From Moraxella sp. (GTDB taxonomy: Bacteria > Pseudomonadota > Gammaproteobacteria > Pseudomonadales > Moraxellaceae): 64,000 nt of DNA. Positions within the stretch are counted from its first letter, which is position 1. Every line of letters starts with the position of its first letter. Both the position numbers and the translations under genes were made by a program. The DNA lies in the NCBI GenBank assembly GCA_041811915.1, contig JBGXSA010000021.1, positions 2,656 through 66,655 on the forward strand. The letters run 5' to 3'. Below are positions 56,134 to 64,000 of this stretch, in pieces. The notes under the pieces are model-generated. The model saw only the letters and a list, made by a program, of their open reading frames with translations. It was not told the origin of the DNA and searched no databases.

Positions 56134-57063
56134 ATGAGAAAATTTAAAATAATTACCGTGGAGAATCGTGTGGAGCGCTTAAATTTACGAAAATATCCAT
56201 CCACCACCGCTTTGCAGTGCTTTGAGTGCACCGCTCGTCATTTGAGTTTTACCAAGGCGGGCAAGGAATTACACATGACTCAAAGTGCGGTGAGTAAGCA
56301 AGTGGCGCATTTAGAGGAGCAGTTGTCGGTACAGTTGTTTTATCGTTCAAGCACAGGTTTGTTTTTGACGCCAGCTGGCAAGTCTTATTATTTAGAAACG
56401 CTCAAAATTTTACAGCATTTGGAAATTGCCACGCTCAATCTGATGGCGCATGGGGTGGAGGCAGATACCTTGCGCATTGTGTCGCACCCAACTTTGTGCG
56501 CCAAATGGCTCATTCCTACGCTCAAGGGCTTTGGGCGCGCGCACCCTTTGATTCATCTGGACATTGCCGAACAGTCGCACGCGTTGATTGATGATGATAT
56601 GGATATGGCGTTTTTGTATGGCGATGGGGTGTGGGCGGACATGGAGGTGGTGAAATTATTTGATGAATGTTCGGTGGCGGTGTGTGCGCCAAGCTATGAA
56701 TGTGATTTTTGTGATGTGCAAAGCCTAAGCTGTGCCACTTTGTTGCAATTGAGAACGCGGCCGCGCGCTTGGCATGATTATTTTAATGAGCAAGGTATTG
56801 TACACGAAAAAGCCATGACGGGCGTGCGTTTTGACACCTTTAATGCGTGCATCAATGCTGCCAAAATCGGCTGCGGTGCGGCGCTTGTGCCAACCAGATT
56901 TGTGCTTGAAGAGCTACAAAATGGCACATTAAAACTGGCAAACACTTATCAAATGACAGGACAGGGCGCGTATTATATGGCGTATCAGGCGCGACTTGGC
57001 AACACCAAAAAAGTACAAGCCATGCTAAGCTGGATAAATCATCATATGCAATTGAATGCTTGA
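56134..57063 (+). CDS. LysR-type regulator, GcvA-like
   Basis: FECTARHLSFTKAGKELHMTQSAVSKQVAHLE HTH; KWLIPTL..F..HP. Confidence 0.92.
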   Translation: MRKFKIITVENRVERLNLRKYPSTTALQCFECTARHLSFTKAGKELHMTQSAVSKQVAHLEEQLSVQLFYRSSTGLFLTPAGKSYYLETLKILQHLEIATLNLMAHGVEADTLRIVSHPTLCAKWLIPTLKGFGRAHPLIHLDIAEQSHALIDDDMDMAFLYGDGVWADMEVVKLFDECSVAVCAPSYECDFCDVQSLSCATLLQLRTRPRAWHDYFNEQGIVHEKAMTGVRFDTFNACINAAKIGCGAALVPTRFVLEELQNGTLKLANTYQMTGQGAYYMAYQARLGNTKKVQAMLSWINHHMQLNA

Positions 57064-57111
57064 ATGCTTGAATGCTTGAATGCTTGAATGCTTGAATGCT
57101 TGAATGCTTGA
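57052..57111 (+). repeat. perfect tandem repeat (TTGAATGC) x7.5
   Basis: Seven exact 8-bp units plus TTGA; contains the LysR stop codon (57061-57063). Confidence 0.98.
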
Positions 57112-57231
57112 TTTGAGTAACGTCATTTTCATTATCAAGAAAAAACAGAATACCCCACCGCCAAATATTCGTTTGTATCATCGCTTCAGAGTTGCCAAAA
57201 TAATGTTGAATTTGATAAATAAGGGAATATC

Positions 57232-58494
57232 ATGGCAACACCAGCACATCTGCCTGATGGCATGGGCATCGTCCACCCCATCACCCTAAGTCATGGCAAC
57301 AATGCCCGTGTATGGGACACGGACGGCAAGGCATATATTGATTTTTTTGGTGGGATTGGCGTGCTTAATTTTGGGCATTGCCACCCTGCCATTGTCAATG
57401 CCATCACCACACAGGCAAGCAAGCTCACCCATGCCGCTTATAACGCCACTTATCACACCCTTTATACAGACTACATTAAGCGGCTCACTGACATCATCCC
57501 GATTGATGATGATTTGTCCGTCATGCTCACCAATAGCGGTGCTGAAGCAGTCGAAAATGCCCTAAAAATCGTCCGCCAAGCCACAGGCAAAGCAGGCGTG
57601 ATTGCCTTTGATGGCGCATTTCATGGGCGTACGCTTGGCACGGTGAATCTAAATGGTAAAGTCACTCCCTACAAATCAGGCTTGGGGCTCTTGGCAAGTG
57701 GCGTGTATCACATTCCCTTTGCCAGTCGTGATACGGGCGTGAGTGTTCAGACGGCTATTGATGCGCTTGAGCGACTCATCAGCGTTGAAGTGGATATAGC
57801 GAACATCGGTGCGGTGATTGTCGAGCCTGTACAAGGCGAAGGCGGGTTTGCCGTGATGGATAGTGAGCTTGCCAAGTATCTGCGTGCGTTTTGCGATACG
57901 CATGGTATTGTGCTGATTTTTGATGAAATCCAAGCAGGCTTTGGGCGCACAGGCACGCCGTTTGCCTTTAGTCATCTGGGCATTGAGCCTGACATACTCT
58001 TACTTGCCAAAAGTATGGCGGGCGGTATGCCACTTGGGGCGGTCGTTGGGCGGGATAAATTCATGCAAGGGCTGATTAAAGGCAGTCTTGGCGGGACTTA
58101 TTCGGGCAACCCTGTGGCGTGTGCTGCTGCGATGGCGGTGCTTGAGATTATGGCGGATGATACGCTGTGGCAAAACGCCAAACGCTACGCCGACACGCTT
58201 GAGATGACCATCAGCACTTGGCAACAAGACGGTATCAACGACTGGGTGGCAGGTTTGACAGGCATTGGTGCGATGCGTGGCATTATCCTAAAACACCCCA
58301 AATACGGCACGCATCCTAAGGTCATGGACTATGTGCTGACTACCGCAAGAGATAAGGGCTTATTACTCATGCCAAGTGGCAAATATCGCCATATCATTCG
58401 CCTATTGCCCCCATTGACCATTGAGATGGATACCTTGAGTAAGGGCTTAAACATTTTAAAAGATGTCTTGGCAAGTATTCCTGATGAGATTTAA
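57232..58494 (+). CDS. class III aminotransferase, most like 2-aminoadipate transaminase (P. putida PP_4108 type)
   Basis: IVHPITLSHG..VWDTDGK.YIDF.GGIGVLN.GHC; NSGAEA; FHGRT; EPVQGEGG; DEIQ.GFGRTG; LLAKS (PLP Lys); similarity to PP_4108 recalled from memory. Confidence 0.8.
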   Translation: MATPAHLPDGMGIVHPITLSHGNNARVWDTDGKAYIDFFGGIGVLNFGHCHPAIVNAITTQASKLTHAAYNATYHTLYTDYIKRLTDIIPIDDDLSVMLTNSGAEAVENALKIVRQATGKAGVIAFDGAFHGRTLGTVNLNGKVTPYKSGLGLLASGVYHIPFASRDTGVSVQTAIDALERLISVEVDIANIGAVIVEPVQGEGGFAVMDSELAKYLRAFCDTHGIVLIFDEIQAGFGRTGTPFAFSHLGIEPDILLLAKSMAGGMPLGAVVGRDKFMQGLIKGSLGGTYSGNPVACAAAMAVLEIMADDTLWQNAKRYADTLEMTISTWQQDGINDWVAGLTGIGAMRGIILKHPKYGTHPKVMDYVLTTARDKGLLLMPSGKYRHIIRLLPPLTIEMDTLSKGLNILKDVLASIPDEI

Positions 58495-58544
58495 GTGGGT
58501 TTTTAAGCAATGCTCTGCATCATTTTCAACCTTAAACCGTTTTC

Positions 58545-58647
58545 GTAGGTTGTGGTTGAGCGATAGCGAAACCCAACATTTTAAATGATTGATTTTATTT
58601 AAAATTTATCAAAAAATTGTTGGGTGTCATTCTTCCACTAAGCTTAC
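58545..58647. repeat. REPIN-like inverted doublet of family A REP elements
   Basis: GTAGGTTGTGGTTGAGCGATAGCGAAACCCAACA (plus, 58545-58578) facing GTAAGCTTAGTGGAAGAATGACACCCAACA (minus, 58647-58618). Confidence 0.7.
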
Positions 58648-58705
58648 AAAATTCATTTTTTATAAAATCAATGAGTAAATTTTTTGATAAATACAAGGAG
58701 TTTTT

Positions 58706-60073
58706 ATGAGTCAATTTACCCCAAAAGCCGATATTCGCCACGCCTTTTCGCTAGCGATGTCAAAAATGTACCAAACCGAAGTGCCATTGTACAAAGATTT
58801 AATGGACTTAGTTGCTGACATCAATGCTGATACACTTGCCAAAGATAGTGAATTAAAACAACATCTTAGCAATACAGGCGAGCTGTCTCGCATTGATTTG
58901 GAGCGACATGGGGCGATTCGCTTGGGGCTACCGAGCGAGCTTGCTACCATGCGTCGTCTATTTGCAGTGATGGGGATGTATCCTGTGGGCTATTATGACC
59001 TTGCCCCTGCCGGCGTGCCTGTACATTCAACGGCGTTTCGTGCTATTGACAGTAATGAGCTACAGATGAGTCCGTTTCGGGTGTTTTGCTCGCTACTGCG
59101 CCCTGAACTTATTGATGATGACGCCTTGCGTGATACCGCCCTACAAACCTTGCAAAACCGCCAAATTTTTAGCGATGGCGTGCTGTTTTTGATTGATAAA
59201 CACGAACAAGACGGCGGACTGAACGCTGATGATGCCGATAAGTTTGTCTCTGAAGCCATCAAAACCTTTCAATGGCACAAAATATCGCCCGTTTCCAAAG
59301 CGTTTTATGAACAGCTATTATCACAGCATCGCTTGATTGCCGATGTGGTGGGGTTTTATGGGCCGCACATCAATCACCTAACGCCACGCACACTAGATAT
59401 TGACGCAGTACAAGACGAAATGGGTCGCCGTGGCATCACCGCCAAAGAAATCATTGAAGGGCCGCCACGCCGCAACTGCCCGATTTTGCTACGCCAAACG
59501 AGCTTTAAAGCACTCAATGAAGCCATTACCTTTACAGGCGATGGGCAAGAAGCAGGTAGCCATACCGCACGATTTGGCGAGATTGAACAGCGTGGCATTG
59601 CCTTGACGCCAAAGGGTCGTGCGCTGTACGACGAACTACTTGCCAAAGCACGAGCCAGTCTTGTCACCACGCCCGAAAAAGACCCTGATGCGTATTATCA
59701 GGCTTTGTCAGAGAGCTTTACCACCTTCCCTGATGATTATCAGGCACTCTACAATGACGGCTTGGCGTATTTTTATTATCAGCTTAGTGATGATTTTGCC
59801 AGCAAAGATATGGGCGATAAATCAGTGCAAACCCTGCTAAACAATGGCGTACTGCGACTTGAGCCGATTGTCTATGAAGACTTTTTGCCTGTGTCGGCGG
59901 CAGGGATTTTTCAGTCTAATCTGGGTGATGATGCCAAATCAGGCTATGATGGTGCATCCAACCAAGCCGCCTTTGAGCGTGATTTGGGTGTGGCCGTCTA
60001 TGATGAATGCACGCTCTATCAAGCGATGATGGATAAGTCATTGGCAGAGTGTTTAGAAAAATTATCTAAATAA
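58706..60073 (+). CDS. hglS: 2-oxoadipate dioxygenase/decarboxylase (hydroxyglutarate synthase, DUF1338/YdcJ)
   Basis: F..AMS.MYQ.EVPLY, ERHGAIRLG, HSTAFR, PFRVFCS, HINHLTPRTLDID, RFGEIEQRG and VYEDFLPVSAAGIFQSNL. Confidence 0.9.
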   Translation: MSQFTPKADIRHAFSLAMSKMYQTEVPLYKDLMDLVADINADTLAKDSELKQHLSNTGELSRIDLERHGAIRLGLPSELATMRRLFAVMGMYPVGYYDLAPAGVPVHSTAFRAIDSNELQMSPFRVFCSLLRPELIDDDALRDTALQTLQNRQIFSDGVLFLIDKHEQDGGLNADDADKFVSEAIKTFQWHKISPVSKAFYEQLLSQHRLIADVVGFYGPHINHLTPRTLDIDAVQDEMGRRGITAKEIIEGPPRRNCPILLRQTSFKALNEAITFTGDGQEAGSHTARFGEIEQRGIALTPKGRALYDELLAKARASLVTTPEKDPDAYYQALSESFTTFPDDYQALYNDGLAYFYYQLSDDFASKDMGDKSVQTLLNNGVLRLEPIVYEDFLPVSAAGIFQSNLGDDAKSGYDGASNQAAFERDLGVAVYDECTLYQAMMDKSLAECLEKLSK

Positions 60074-60094
60074 ATTATCTTTAGCAAGTTACAA

Positions 60095-60121
60095 CACCCC
60101 AAAGGCATGGTATTTGGGGTG
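60095..60121. terminator. bidirectional terminator-like hairpin between convergent hglS and the ABC exporter
   Basis: CACCCCAAA...TTTGGGGTG arms. Confidence 0.6.
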
Positions 60122-60214
60122 CTTTGTATCAGTTAGCCTGCGATGCCTAAAGTGTTTAAATGATCTAGGTATGACTATCTGCTATTAGATTGTATACAAA
60201 TAAAGTGCTAAGCT

Positions 60215-62326
60215 TTAATCAATATTCTGCATTGATATTGTTTTACCAAGATTGAGCACCCAATCAGCGCTCTTAATTGTTTCAGGTCGGTGCGCTATCA
60301 TCACTCGTGTGATACCTAGTGATTTGATCATTTTATTAATCTGATGCTCTTTTTTAATATCCAAATGGCTAGTGGCTTCATCCAAAAATAAAATTTTTAG
60401 TCTACGATATAGGGCGCGAGCAATAAAAATACGTTGCTTTTGACCACCTGATAGTATATTGCCCATATCGCCGACAAGCGTCTGATAGCCCATAGGCATT
60501 GTCATGATTTCATCATGAATCCCAGCCATAATAGCACATTGCTCCACCCATTCATTGTCTGGTTTATCATCAAAAAAGCTGATATTTTCAGCTAAAGAGC
60601 CTGCAAATAGTGTGTCATCTTGACTAACACAGGCAATAATATCACGAGCATTTAGCTCTGCCATGCTGTGGTGAACCTTACCTGCAATTTTAATCTCCCC
60701 TGATTTGGGTGTAAGCTCACCCATAAGCAGGCTCATCAGTGTACTCTTTCCACAACCTGTTGCTCCAACGATGGCTACAGATTCTTTGTCTTTAATATGA
60801 AAACTTAAGTTGTTAATAATGCTGGGCTCATCATCATTGTAAGTAAAGGATAGGTTATTTACTTGTATGTCATAAACGGATGTATCTTTTTGTTCTATTA
60901 GGGGTAGATAGTCATTTTTTTCTGTTTTTTCTAATACAATGTCAGCAAGTCTTTCACCATGTAAGTTTAACATTTTTACTTCAATAAATTTATCTATTAG
61001 ATTGCTTACTCGCCCACCAAACTGATTTTTATAGGCGATAAATGCCATTAAAATGCCAACTGTAAAAGTGCCATTAATGACTAGATTTGCACCCAAATAG
61101 ATAATGATAAGATTTTCAAGTCCAAAAATGATACCATTAATAAATCCAAACATAAGCCCTAATTTTTGGGTGTAAAGCCCTGCATTAATGGTATTAACAA
61201 ATAAAGTAAGCCATGTACTCTTTCTTATATCTTCCTTATTAAAACGTTTAATAACACGAATACCGCGCATAGTCTCCATAAAATGCGTACTTTGCTTGGC
61301 AGCATGTATGATTTGTTCTTCGGTAGCTTGTTTTAGGGGTGTATACCAAAGAAAACGCAAGAGTCCATATATCATCATTGCACCCACTGCAACCCATGCC
61401 AAAGCTGGACTATAAAAGAACATCAATACAAGTGTAAATACTGTCATCATGCCATCTAAGACAACGGTCAAAAACGTTGTGGTCAGCGTAGACTGAATAC
61501 TGTCAATTGCTCCAAAACGAGAAATAATATCACCCAAATGTCTTTTTTGAAAAAATTGACTGGGTAGATGTGTTAAATGATGAAAAACATTAGCCTTCCA
61601 TTGGATATTGAGTGTGGTGGAAATATACATACTTATCCATGATTGAAGTAAGCTTGTTAGCTGTGTTAAAAACATGAGTATGCCAAAGCCAATAACCAGT
61701 GTCGTTAATAAATCTTTATCAGCCGATACAATGGCGTGGTCAATCACCCACTGCATAAAAAATTGACTGGTTAGAGCAAATATTTCTAGCACCAATGCTA
61801 AAATCAATATCTGTCCCAAAGGCTTGTAAAGTCCTTTTATTTCGCCAATTAACTTAAATAAACGAATATTAACCTTATCTTCTTTTTTCTCAAAATCACT
61901 ATCCGCCCACACCTCTAGGGCTATCCCTGTAAAATGATCTGACGCCTCTTGAATGGTCATTATTCTTTGTCCAGCACTTGGATCTAGGATAGTAATTTTA
62001 GTTTTGGATACGGATTTTAATACCACAAAGTGATTCATATCCCAGTGCAAAATACATGGCGTACGCAGCCGATTAAGTTCATTCAATTCTAGCCTTAAAG
62101 GGCGCGTGCTAAGCTTCATTTGCTCAGCAATCTTAATAAGCGTGTGCAAAGTTGCACCTTTTTGGGAAATGGGATATTTTTGGCGCAAACTCCATAAATC
62201 AGTCAGATACCCATGATAATGAGCTATCATAGCAAGGCAAGCCAGTCCACACTCAGCAGATTCGGTTTGTAAAATAATGGGTAGTTTGGCTGATAAACCA
62301 AAATTAATGCGTTTTAAAAAATCCAT
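60215..62326 (-). CDS. peptidase-domain (C39) ABC exporter, CvaB/MchF type
   Basis: QTESAECGLACLAM and HWDMNHFVVL (C39 Cys/His); 6-TM region; GATGCGKST, LSGGQKQR, ILFLDEATSHLD and AHRPET. Confidence 0.95.
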   Translation of the reverse strand: MDFLKRINFGLSAKLPIILQTESAECGLACLAMIAHYHGYLTDLWSLRQKYPISQKGATLHTLIKIAEQMKLSTRPLRLELNELNRLRTPCILHWDMNHFVVLKSVSKTKITILDPSAGQRIMTIQEASDHFTGIALEVWADSDFEKKEDKVNIRLFKLIGEIKGLYKPLGQILILALVLEIFALTSQFFMQWVIDHAIVSADKDLLTTLVIGFGILMFLTQLTSLLQSWISMYISTTLNIQWKANVFHHLTHLPSQFFQKRHLGDIISRFGAIDSIQSTLTTTFLTVVLDGMMTVFTLVLMFFYSPALAWVAVGAMMIYGLLRFLWYTPLKQATEEQIIHAAKQSTHFMETMRGIRVIKRFNKEDIRKSTWLTLFVNTINAGLYTQKLGLMFGFINGIIFGLENLIIIYLGANLVINGTFTVGILMAFIAYKNQFGGRVSNLIDKFIEVKMLNLHGERLADIVLEKTEKNDYLPLIEQKDTSVYDIQVNNLSFTYNDDEPSIINNLSFHIKDKESVAIVGATGCGKSTLMSLLMGELTPKSGEIKIAGKVHHSMAELNARDIIACVSQDDTLFAGSLAENISFFDDKPDNEWVEQCAIMAGIHDEIMTMPMGYQTLVGDMGNILSGGQKQRIFIARALYRRLKILFLDEATSHLDIKKEHQINKMIKSLGITRVMIAHRPETIKSADWVLNLGKTISMQNID

Positions 62327-62395
62327 GACTAAGATTATCCATAAAAACTGTGGCAACAAAAAAGGTGCAATTGCACCCATGACAAATTGATTGGT

Positions 62396-63662
62396 TTAAA
62401 TTTTACCTGTGATACTGTAAAGTGGTTCAAGCACCCATTCATATAATTTGCGTGTTTCATGCATGACATCACCCTCCAAGGTCATGCCAACTGCTAGGGG
62501 CAGTTCTTTGCCATAGGCTGTTATGGTTTGCTTATCTAGATGTATCTTAATAACATACATCGGCTCATTGGCGATTTGTTCAGTGGCTGATACTGTGCCA
62601 ATGGTGGGTAAGTTTTGTCCTGCATGAGCAGTTTTGGCAACAGAGATAATACGTCCCTTGGCATGTCCAAATTTCTGATAAGGATACGCTACATAGCGGA
62701 GCAATACTTCATCATCCATCTTAACAAAACCAATAGCACGACTAGGCACATACATCACCGCAATCAAATGGCTGTCATTAGGCAGAATGCTTACAAGTGA
62801 CTGACTGCTATCCACAAATTGCCCCACATCGGCATGAGCGACACTTGCCACACCATCTACTTGGGCTTTAATAAACAAAGTATCGTTGGCTTGGTTTTGG
62901 ATGCTATCGCTTTTGTTGTCAGACAATGTGCGTTCATATTGTAGAAGTGTTGCTTTATGCTCATGCTCTAGACGGTATAAAGCTATGGCTTGCTCTTTGA
63001 TTTGTCTGGCAATGACTTCTTTCTCTCTCGAGAGCGGTTAAACTATTTAGCTGTGTATTGTATGCCATTGTTTGTGATTCTAGCTCTTGCTTGGGTACAG
63101 CCTCACTTTGCATGGCAAATTCATATCGCGCCAAAGTCTCTTTGGCAATGGCAACCTGATGTGCCTGTAAATCCATTTGAGCTTGTAGCTTGTCCATGTC
63201 TATTTGTAGACGCTCTATGGTGTTTGCGATATTTCTTTTTTCGGCAGATTGAGCATGCTTGGTGCGAGTGACTTCATGTTCTATCAGCTGTCTTTTGAAT
63301 GCCAGTTCTTTGTCTAGCATGCTTTGTACATTACCAGCATCAGTATGGCGAGCAGTAGAGATTTTGTACAAAACATCTCCTGCCTTGACTGTCTGACCTT
63401 CAAAAACATGTTTTTCTGTTATCACACCTGCTGTTGTGGTATAGACTTGTACCAACCCTTTGTTGGGAATGAGTTGACCTTTGACTGTACTACGCTTGGT
63501 ATATTCACCCCATACCAAAAATATAATCAGTACAAGCCCTGCCATAAACGCACAAAACGTCAAAAAAGCAAAGCTAATCGGCGTTATTATCACAACCTTA
63601 CCCGCCCAATCTATTTTTTGGGCGGATAGGGCTTCAGGGCGGAATAGACTGGAGATAGGCAA
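62396..63662 (-). pseudogene. HlyD-family membrane fusion protein, CvaA/MchE type, split by a frameshift
   Basis: N-half (SLFRPEAL..GEYTKRSTVKGQLIP..VFEGQTVKAGDVL) and C-half (IKAQVDG..VPSRAIGFV..YPYQKFG..LYEWVLEPL) rejoin in frame if one GA is added to (GA)4 at 63022-63029. Confidence 0.9.
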
Positions 63663-64000
63663 TCAATCACCGTAGTTATTGCCTGATGTGTCTTGGTTGT
63701 CATGCTTTAATACGCTATTAAATCCTTTAACTGATCTTTCGGCTAATCCACCACCTGCAGCTCCTGAAAAAGATGCCACATAAGTATTACTGAATCTTTG
63801 ACTCAACATACCAGCTACAATTGAACCTGTCATACCTTCTGCGGTAATATCGTTGCCAGCCGTAATATTATACATCGCATGAGTACCTCCACCTACTGCG
63901 CCACCCGATACAATAGCTCGCCCAGCAGGACTATTGACAGACTTAGACACTTCAAGAGTTGCTCTTACAAGTGGTGCCATACCGCCAGAAACTGATAGTA
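63663..64000 (-). CDS. double-glycine-leader bacteriocin/microcin-like precursor, 5' end outside the window
   Basis: The frame stays open upstream of the ATG at 63980 and reads (L/I/V)-L-S-V-S-G-G then MAPLVRATLEV...; 105-aa Gly/Ala/Ser-rich, Cys-free putative mature part; directly upstream of the HlyD and C39-ABC genes. Confidence 0.8.
   Translation of the reverse strand, partial: LSVSGGMAPLVRATLEVSKSVNSPAGRAIVSGGAVGGGTHAMYNITAGNDITAEGMTGSIVAGMLSQRFSNTYVASFSGAAGGGLAERSVKGFNSVLKHDNQDTSGNNYGD

Follow-up and report, generated by a model that had tools for sequence, protein, structure and literature searches.

A putative class II microcin-like peptide as an upstream cargo of the Moraxella mcb-type export locus, probably disabled in the lineage examined

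At the right-hand end of a 64,000-nucleotide (nt) stretch of Moraxella sp. DNA (contig JBGXSA010000021.1; the whole stretch is hereafter the window), a small glycine-rich open reading frame (ORF) precedes genes for an HlyD-type adaptor and an ATP-binding cassette (ABC) exporter, all three on the minus strand. The questions raised by this locus are whether the small ORF specifies a secreted microcin-like bacteriocin, whether the three genes form a system of their own, and whether that system still works. The reading favoured here, to which a probability of about 0.65 is given, is that the product is a class II microcin-like peptide with a double-glycine leader, a cargo of a Moraxella McbA/McbB-type type I secretion system that has been disabled in the window lineage; its toxic activity is presumed. 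To our knowledge, only about a dozen class II microcins have been characterised, nearly all from Enterobacterales, the others being single Acinetobacter and Vibrio examples plus McbC of M. catarrhalis.

The precursor gene runs off the edge of the window. In a mechanically produced list of ORFs it begins at an ATG at position 63980, but the frame is actually open as far as base 64000, and on the minus strand (x)LSVSGG is read immediately ahead of MAPLV, positions 63663–63998 translating to LSVSGG plus 105 residues. This reading, put forward in a preliminary description of the window, was confirmed by translation and by comparison with P0002, a 120-amino acid (aa) protein called on sibling contigs, residues 10–120 of which are identical to all 111 residues visible in the window. 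The first nine codons (MRELNFQEL) and an AGGAG ribosome-binding site fall past the edge. The sibling contigs reach at most 2.3 kb upstream of this edge, and one of them, L004, was taken as a proxy for the sequence beyond it because it differs from window positions 60001–64000 by one base in 4000. L004 supplies the missing start (AGGAG, 8 nt and an ATG), which opens a 120-aa precursor made up of a 15-aa double-glycine leader, MRELNFQELLSVSGG, and a 105-aa Gly/Ala/Ser-rich peptide. The parts of this gene are placed as follows:

63663–64000, minus strand: 3′ 338 nt of the precursor gene (ORF frame and translation; the full gene is at L004 2255–2617 and encodes P0002)
63981–63998, minus strand: last six leader codons, LSVSGG (translation)
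63666–63980, minus strand: 105-aa mature peptide (translation)
63666–63686, minus strand: C-terminal tail SGNNYGD of the mature peptide (family alignments and locus survey)
63663–63665, minus strand: TGA stop of the precursor gene

The leaders of class II microcins are 15–19 aa long, end in GG or GA, and have hydrophobic residues at positions −4, −7 and −12 and Glu at −8. The leader MRELNFQELLSVSGG shows this pattern, with L−12, E−8, L−7, V−4, G−2 and G−1. It resembles the McbC leader (9 of 15 residues), aligns with the CvaC leader, and matches the TIGR03949 model with an E value of 8e-4, just under the model cut-off. A double-glycine leader next to an HlyD adaptor and a C39-peptidase ABC exporter had already been proposed from the truncated gene; its extension beyond position 64000 by means of the sibling contigs bore this out, providing an in-frame start, a ribosome-binding site and the 15-aa leader. 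The start codon and ribosome-binding site in those contigs also rule out that the ORF is just the end of a longer protein. A protein search returned a single cluster of 120-aa proteins, 95–100% identical to one another. The bacteriocin unit as a whole is AT-rich, with a GC content of 0.36–0.43 versus 0.44–0.51 for its flanks. Scans of the locus for promoters and terminators gave results no better than those for shuffled sequences, and the best Fur-box match at the locus (14/19) was the same as that for shuffles.

The mature peptide has a mass of 10,525 Da and an isoelectric point of 6.7, and 55% of its residues are G, A, S, V or T. It is without Cys, ends in QDTSGNNYGD and contains GGAVGGG and GAAGGG segments, all as the preliminary description had it; several small-xxx-small runs are also present. 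Scans of the peptide against Pfam and NCBIfam returned no family, the sole match being the sub-threshold, leader-only one to TIGR03949, and beyond the leader no likeness was found to McbC, MccV/CvaC or any Pfam or NCBIfam bacteriocin model. Near-identity to an already characterised bacteriocin, which would have removed the novelty of the peptide, was thus checked, with likeness to McbC, MccV and the family models confined to the leader. No match came up when GTDB species genomes and JGI metagenomes were scanned with a pattern for the peptide. An exhaustive HMMER search of 1.84 billion representatives returned only some eight related clusters (116–128 aa; 31–55% identity), two further weak matches being repetitive, unrelated proteins. 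The family has in common the leader, a G-rich core (invariant G45, G64, G67, G72, G92 and E96) and a tail, D-K-S-G-N-x-Y-G, which is sometimes doubled. Its named members are 'hypothetical proteins' of Neisseria sp. N95_16 and Mannheimia granulomatis, and the locus is present in oral metagenomes. Judged by these comparisons, the mature peptide is a new core family that matches no known bacteriocin. The family is limited to bacteria of the oral and respiratory mucosa of animals and humans, where it may influence how Moraxella, Neisseria and Pasteurellaceae compete.

The two genes that follow the precursor gene are orthologues of export genes of M. catarrhalis:

62961–63662, minus strand: hlyD/mcbA orthologue, N-terminal fragment of 233 aa up to a premature stop (ORF list, domain search and comparison with plasmid pLQ510)
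63020–63026, minus strand: site of a 2-bp deletion in hlyD, at about 63022 (alignment with the intact relatives L001 and pLQ510, and with L004)
62396–63019, minus strand: hlyD/mcbA orthologue, C-terminal part in a shifted frame (TIGR01843 positions 266–414)
60215–62380, minus strand: peptidase-containing ABC transporter, mcbB orthologue, a 721-aa ORF (domain search and comparison with pLQ510)

The ABC gene probably starts at an ATG at 62326 (MDFLKR...), as judged from the pLQ510 and M. bovoculi genes. Its product contains Peptidase_C39 (E value 4e-37), ABC_membrane and ABC_tran domains; in ORF numbering, the catalytic residues of the C39 motifs are Q38/C44, H117 and D133, and the ATPase motifs are Walker A at 539, LSGGQ at 643, Walker B at 663 and the H-loop at 695. 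The precursor gene is thus accompanied by an adjacent ABC exporter with a C39 domain that is, to judge from its residues, catalytically competent. When window positions 60100–64000 were compared with the M. catarrhalis plasmid pLQ510, the nt identity was 89.6% over 89% of the query (3.46 kb), spanning mcbA and mcbB. The ratio of nonsynonymous to synonymous substitution rates (dN/dS) of the exporter genes against pLQ510 was 0.06–0.12, and the mcbA primer AA247 of PMC2761928 was found verbatim in the window hlyD. On this evidence the window hlyD and ABC genes are identified as the orthologues of M. catarrhalis mcbA (HlyD adaptor) and mcbB (C39-ABC exporter). In M. catarrhalis, mcbA, mcbB and mcbC are each required for killing, and mcbI confers immunity (Attia et al. 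2009, PMC2761928).

The preliminary description called the locus an uncharacterised system and found its gene order unlike that of mcbABCI. The difference in order is real: pLQ510 has mcbC and mcbI downstream of mcbB, whereas the cargo of the window lies upstream of mcbA, and no McbC- or McbI-like gene was found in the ∼140 nt between the ABC stop (60215) and the convergent chromosomal gene ending at 60073. The mature peptide is, moreover, unrelated to McbC, and mcbA is frameshifted in the window. The notion of a separate system did not survive the comparison with pLQ510. Upstream of mcbA, this plasmid contains an intact 55-aa ORF, the first ∼50 nt of a 69-aa ORF and the last ∼43 nt of the window peptide gene (..DNQDKSDNNYSD, stop), in the order cupin, orf55, orf69′, peptide′, mcbA, a deletion remnant of ∼0.5 kb. 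Because pLQ510 bears this deletion remnant of the same peptide gene upstream of mcbA, the window peptide is best regarded as an alternative cargo cassette, undescribed so far, on the upstream side of the known mcb locus of Moraxella. It would be a further cargo of the M. catarrhalis-type exporter, unrelated to the first, and its presence accounts for a piece of a gene ahead of mcbA in pLQ510 that had gone unnoticed. A further arrangement was seen in a Moraxella sp. metagenome-assembled genome (L013 7099–7565), in which an McbC/McbI-like pair is located upstream of the ABC gene; its peptide has a MRELNTNEIKAVSGA leader and an McbC-like core, and is followed by a lipoprotein-like 74-aa ORF of McbI length. 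The position of the cargo relative to the exporter therefore varies within Moraxella.

In the window lineage, the gene for the adjacent HlyD-type adaptor is present but split. The canonical ATG of hlyD is an ATC in the window, leaving only a TTG available as a start, and alignment with three intact relatives showed that a run of five A residues has been cut to three within GAGAGAG[AA]AAAGAAG, causing a frameshift; the C-terminal piece appears in the ORF list with an internal TTG start (62396–62926, 176 aa). Both lesions were found in every sibling contig with an identical P0002 precursor that covers the sites, from at least seven samples. In the loci L001 and L002, which encode a 95% identical precursor (P0001), hlyD is intact (420/422 aa) and has an ATG start. 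Since the lesions are common to all covering P0002 contigs while L001 and L002 are intact, they are real and fixed in the lineage, and are not assembly errors. The dN/dS against pLQ510 is ∼0.1 on either side of the break, which argues for a recent inactivation. The exporter had been described beforehand as in need of repair; the lesion does exist, but it is in hlyD and not in the ABC gene. With an adaptor gene lacking its ATG and bearing a 2-bp frameshift, and with no cupin gene found (see below), the cassette would be dead for export, and in the window lineage it is most likely a recently disabled copy that is no longer exported. When the hlyD allele of the window (62396–63662) was compared with that of L001 (858–2126), the synonymous divergence (dS) was 0.04 in the first 639 nt and 0.39 afterwards. 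This jump points to a recombination breakpoint inside hlyD, such that the peptide cassette would travel with the hlyD 5′ end.

The absence of any immunity gene inside the window, noted earlier, was upheld, and candidates were found just past its edge. Directly upstream of the precursor gene, L004 has three short ORFs (69, 55 and 50 aa), all of which contain hydrophobic windows (Kyte-Doolittle value of at least 1.6); no family match was obtained for orf55 or orf69. Compared with L001, orf55 shows no nonsynonymous and four synonymous changes, and compared with pLQ510 one and five, respectively; in pLQ510 it is intact despite the deletion of the peptide gene. Because it has been kept where the peptide gene is gone, a pattern expected of orphan immunity, orf55 is probably the better immunity candidate. 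Further upstream in L004 lies a second double-glycine peptide of 100 aa (MFELSIEQIKMVSGG, followed by AADQSGNDYGD...) with its own 64-aa membrane ORF, and beyond it the 3′ end of a third bacteriocin-like ORF and a 69-aa membrane ORF. The 100-aa peptide (L004 1097–1594; L098 7354–7851 in M. bovoculi) has SGN(D/N)YGD at its mature N-terminus and not at its C-terminus, and in M. bovoculi (L098) its gene comes immediately after the cupin gene. L004 also contains, at 881–936, 56 nt that repeat the hlyD 5′ end with 95% identity, 1.77 kb upstream of the real hlyD, and at ∼1050–1075, just ahead of the 100-aa peptide gene, the last ∼25 nt of a cupin gene. Both are scars left by the recombination of cassettes. 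Together with the jump in dS within hlyD, they show that toxin-immunity cassettes have recombined at this locus into a mosaic, one anchor being the 5′ end of hlyD.

The C-terminal tail links the window peptide to other loci. The preliminary description correctly stated that the peptide has no class IIb serine-rich tail; what it overlooked is a conserved C-terminal tail of another kind, which connects the peptide to cupin-associated microcins. The family motif, [DN]-[KQT]-S-G-N-x-Y-G, is also found on unrelated double-glycine peptides of cupin-containing loci, several of them in M. cuniculi and others in M. bovoculi, Mannheimia and Pseudomonas lopnurensis. When 15 tail peptides from six genera were aligned, the motif reduced to G-[NTSD]-x-Y, with an invariant Tyr and a nearly invariant Gly. 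Neisseria sp. N95_16 (CP046027, L095 5000–14900) has an array of at least eight different double-glycine peptides ending in DKSGNNYG(D/G/H), often doubled, with a small hydrophobic ORF after each peptide and one HlyD gene and a JmjC cupin alongside, all annotated as hypothetical. Peptides of Acinetobacter baumannii plasmids end in GNDYCEDGG(N/D)Y, and one of these is annotated as a 'bacteriocin' by NCBI. The tail strings did not occur in the literature text searched.

The tail-peptide loci encode a protein of ∼385 aa with JmjC_2, Cupin_8 and ROXA-like winged-helix domains, the solved relatives of which are the ribosomal oxygenases NO66 and MINA53 and a putative asparaginyl hydroxylase. Genes for this cupin, HlyD and the C39-ABC exporter lie beside tail peptides in M. 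cuniculi, M. bovoculi, Neisseria sp. N95_16, Mannheimia granulomatis, Pseudomonas lopnurensis, A. baumannii plasmids and the locus of P0006; the last, the closest relative of the window peptide (55% identity), has the order cupin, 68-aa membrane ORF, peptide, hlyD. Among 80 neighbourhoods of related exporters, tail peptides were found in one of the two loci with a cupin and in none of the 78 others (counts that ignore kinship), and the separately fetched cupin loci L094, L095 and L096 also have tail peptides; the tail-cupin association is thus robust in count. Broken export or modifier genes were seen at several of these loci: hlyD is split in L015 (M. cuniculi), the C39-ABC ORF of Neisseria sp. 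N95_16 (L094/L095) is only ∼390 aa long and lies beside an insertion sequence transposase, the cupin of the A. baumannii plasmids (L096) is interrupted by ISAba10, and in pLQ510 (L093) the cupin is truncated and the peptide gene deleted. The peptide and membrane ORFs persist in all of these broken loci.

A characterised system of this kind is that of Mcc17978/MccAB1 of A. baumannii, in which the order is mcaA (microcin), mcaI (a small ORF with two transmembrane segments, conferring immunity), mcaB (cupin), mcaC (HlyD) and mcaD (C39-ABC exporter, or peptidase-containing ABC transporter) (PMC10333792, PMC13188072). Antibacterial activity depends on the cupin, a suspected modifying enzyme; uptake occurs via FepA/PiuA/Fiu, the inner membrane is permeabilised, and the GAV motifs of the peptide drive killing as well as amyloid and biofilm formation (PMC10333792, PMC13188072). 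Eleven A. baumannii microcins have in common the leader and the C-terminal 12–14 aa, the latter read as a shared receptor-binding region (PMC10333792, PMC13188072). The Moraxella locus has the same order of peptide, adaptor and C39-ABC exporter. In both systems the leader is of 15 aa and ends in GG or GA, the core is rich in Gly, Ala and Val, and a small two-helix ORF adjoins the peptide gene. Both also have a short tail at the C-terminus that is conserved among peptides differing in the rest of their sequence (GNDYCEDGG(N/D)Y in A. baumannii, SGNNYGD in the window), and relatives of the window peptide adjoin an McaB-like JmjC cupin. Unlike the MccAB1 system, the window shows no cupin, and neither do the 2.3 kb upstream of it; the core is unrelated, and the tail of the window peptide is in single copy and without Cys. 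In plan and tail, then, the window peptide fits the cupin-associated kind of microcin, albeit without a cupin and a working adaptor in the window lineage. The tail-cupin link, found in seven lineages, extends the cupin-dependence of microcin killing described for A. baumannii and offers a testable candidate for the substrate motif.

Class II microcins generally have an N-terminal toxic part and a C-terminal part for uptake (PMC12219008). This modular plan, the double-glycine leader, the C39-ABC exporter and the membrane fusion protein adaptor are shared by the window locus with MccV/CvaC (CvaA-CvaB-TolC) and with MccE492, MccH47 and MccM. MccV and the class IIb microcins have a dedicated immunity gene, for which orf55 and orf69 are the candidates here. 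Unlike MccV, to which the similarity (in the comparison with CvaC) is restricted to the leader, the window peptide is of 10.5 kDa and has no Cys; unlike the class IIb (siderophore-) microcins, it has a tail (DTSGNNYGD) that is not serine-rich, and no siderophore-attachment genes of the mceC/I/J type are present at the locus. The nap island of Neisseria (PMC11798529) was considered as a parallel and rejected, the nap peptides being short and cationic and the gene set different.

A broader proposal can be offered tentatively, and is rather doubtful. The G-N-x-Y(-G) tail might be a portable tag that marks a subclass of class II microcins across families (Moraxellaceae, Neisseriaceae, Pasteurellaceae and Pseudomonas). 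It might be the substrate of the co-encoded JmjC/ribosomal-oxygenase-like cupin, hydroxylation of Asn or Tyr being one possibility, and the modified tail might be recognised by a TonB-dependent receptor of the target, a function comparable to that of the class IIb siderophore tail. The hlyD 5′ end, together with leaders and tails, would then provide recombination anchors for the shuffling of cores and immunity genes, and the window peptide would represent a core that has lost both its modifier and its exporter.

As a class II microcin-like cargo, the peptide would act along the following lines. The C39 domain would cut the precursor after Gly15, and the mature peptide would leave the cell through the ABC exporter, its HlyD adaptor and a channel in the outer membrane. 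The tail of the peptide, SGNNYGD, would mediate recognition at the outer membrane of the target cell, and could also be a substrate of the JmjC/cupin enzyme where this is present; the glycine-rich helical core would then damage the inner membrane. The producer would be protected by the small two-helix membrane ORFs directly upstream, that of 69 aa and/or that of 55 aa. In the window lineage, export would have been lost through the missing ATG and the 2-bp frameshift of the adaptor gene, the intact-hlyD allele with its 95% identical peptide existing in other samples.

A number of observations weigh against this interpretation. At 10.5 kDa, the mature peptide slightly exceeds the conventional limit of ∼10 kDa for microcins. 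It has no strongly hydrophobic 19-residue window (maximum Kyte-Doolittle value 0.66), and its AlphaFold2 model, for which a family alignment of nine sequences was the input, is helical with a disordered tail and of low confidence (predicted local distance difference test score 54.6). The two peptide alleles differ by five nonsynonymous and two synonymous changes, which are too few to show selection, and RNA runs contained just 4–8% of the sampled words, from distant relatives only, and give no support for expression. Searches by tblastn of the window and of the 2.3 kb upstream (L004) returned no JmjC/cupin gene, and only the ∼25-nt 3′ remnant is left. When orf69 was compared with the 68-aa ORF at the same place in the closest relative, BLASTP gave no match and a global alignment a z value of 0.4. 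Finally, the link to the A. baumannii tails rests on other A. baumannii peptides, the published MccAB1 sequence being available only in figures.

Other explanations of the locus were weighed against the favoured one. The exported peptide may not be primarily a toxin, and may instead be a self-assembling matrix, an amyloid or biofilm peptide, or a signal that uses the same exporter. The fibres and biofilm promoted by the GAV motifs of MccAB1 are independent of killing (PMC10333792, PMC13188072), the composition and small-xxx-small runs of the window peptide would suit such a role, and the nap peptides of Neisseria have double-glycine leaders yet no antibacterial activity (PMC11798529). This explanation is nevertheless judged unlikely: the window peptide has one GAV motif (in SGGAVGGG) as against three in MccAB1, the same exporter secretes a proven bacteriocin in M. 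catarrhalis (PMC2761928), and small membrane ORFs of the immunity type flank the gene, one of them being under purifying selection even where the peptide gene has been deleted. A similarity, by description, to the Caulobacter CdzC/D type of contact-dependent, surface-retained glycine-zipper bacteriocin also comes to mind, since glycine-rich peptides and type I export are common to both (the comparison with Cdz is drawn in PMC13188072), and a peptide of more than 10 kDa with an aggregation-prone composition might stay on the cell surface rather than diffuse. Cdz is, however, a two-peptide system, as opposed to the single peptide per cassette seen here, and a conserved tail better fits a receptor-uptake module of the microcin type; of the explanations considered, this one is the most improbable.

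A different matter is whether the system still works in the window strain, with translation starting at the TTG and either the two HlyD fragments or another adaptor encoded elsewhere complementing the exporter. A TTG does lie right after the stop codon of the peptide gene, and an internal one stands at the head of the 176-aa C-terminal ORF. The ABC gene is undamaged, and the occurrence of the frameshift allele in at least seven independent samples indicates that it is stably maintained. The break, however, is situated in the middle of the coiled coil of a single-chain adaptor that in other relatives is one 420-aa ORF, and a run of three A residues is too short for efficient slippage, and a shift of 2 nt would be needed. 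Residual function therefore seems a little less likely still than a non-toxic role of the peptide, though not as remote as a Cdz-like bacteriocin, and we retain the reading of a microcin-like cargo whose export has been lost.

On its downstream side, the AT-rich bacteriocin unit is flanked by a chromosomal cluster (56134–60073) that includes genes for a LysR-type regulator (56134–57063) and a class III aminotransferase (57232–58494) as well as an HGLS-family protein. The aminotransferase is named 2-aminoadipate transaminase in relatives and falls into one cluster, at an identity of at least 90%, with M. pluranimalium and Moraxella sp. FZLJ2107 proteins; the cluster looks like one for lysine/2-aminoadipate catabolism. 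Between the end of the LysR-type regulator gene and the aminotransferase gene, at 57052–57111, is a perfect tandem repeat of 7.5 copies of TTGAATGC, which could alter promoter spacing or be a site of phase variation.

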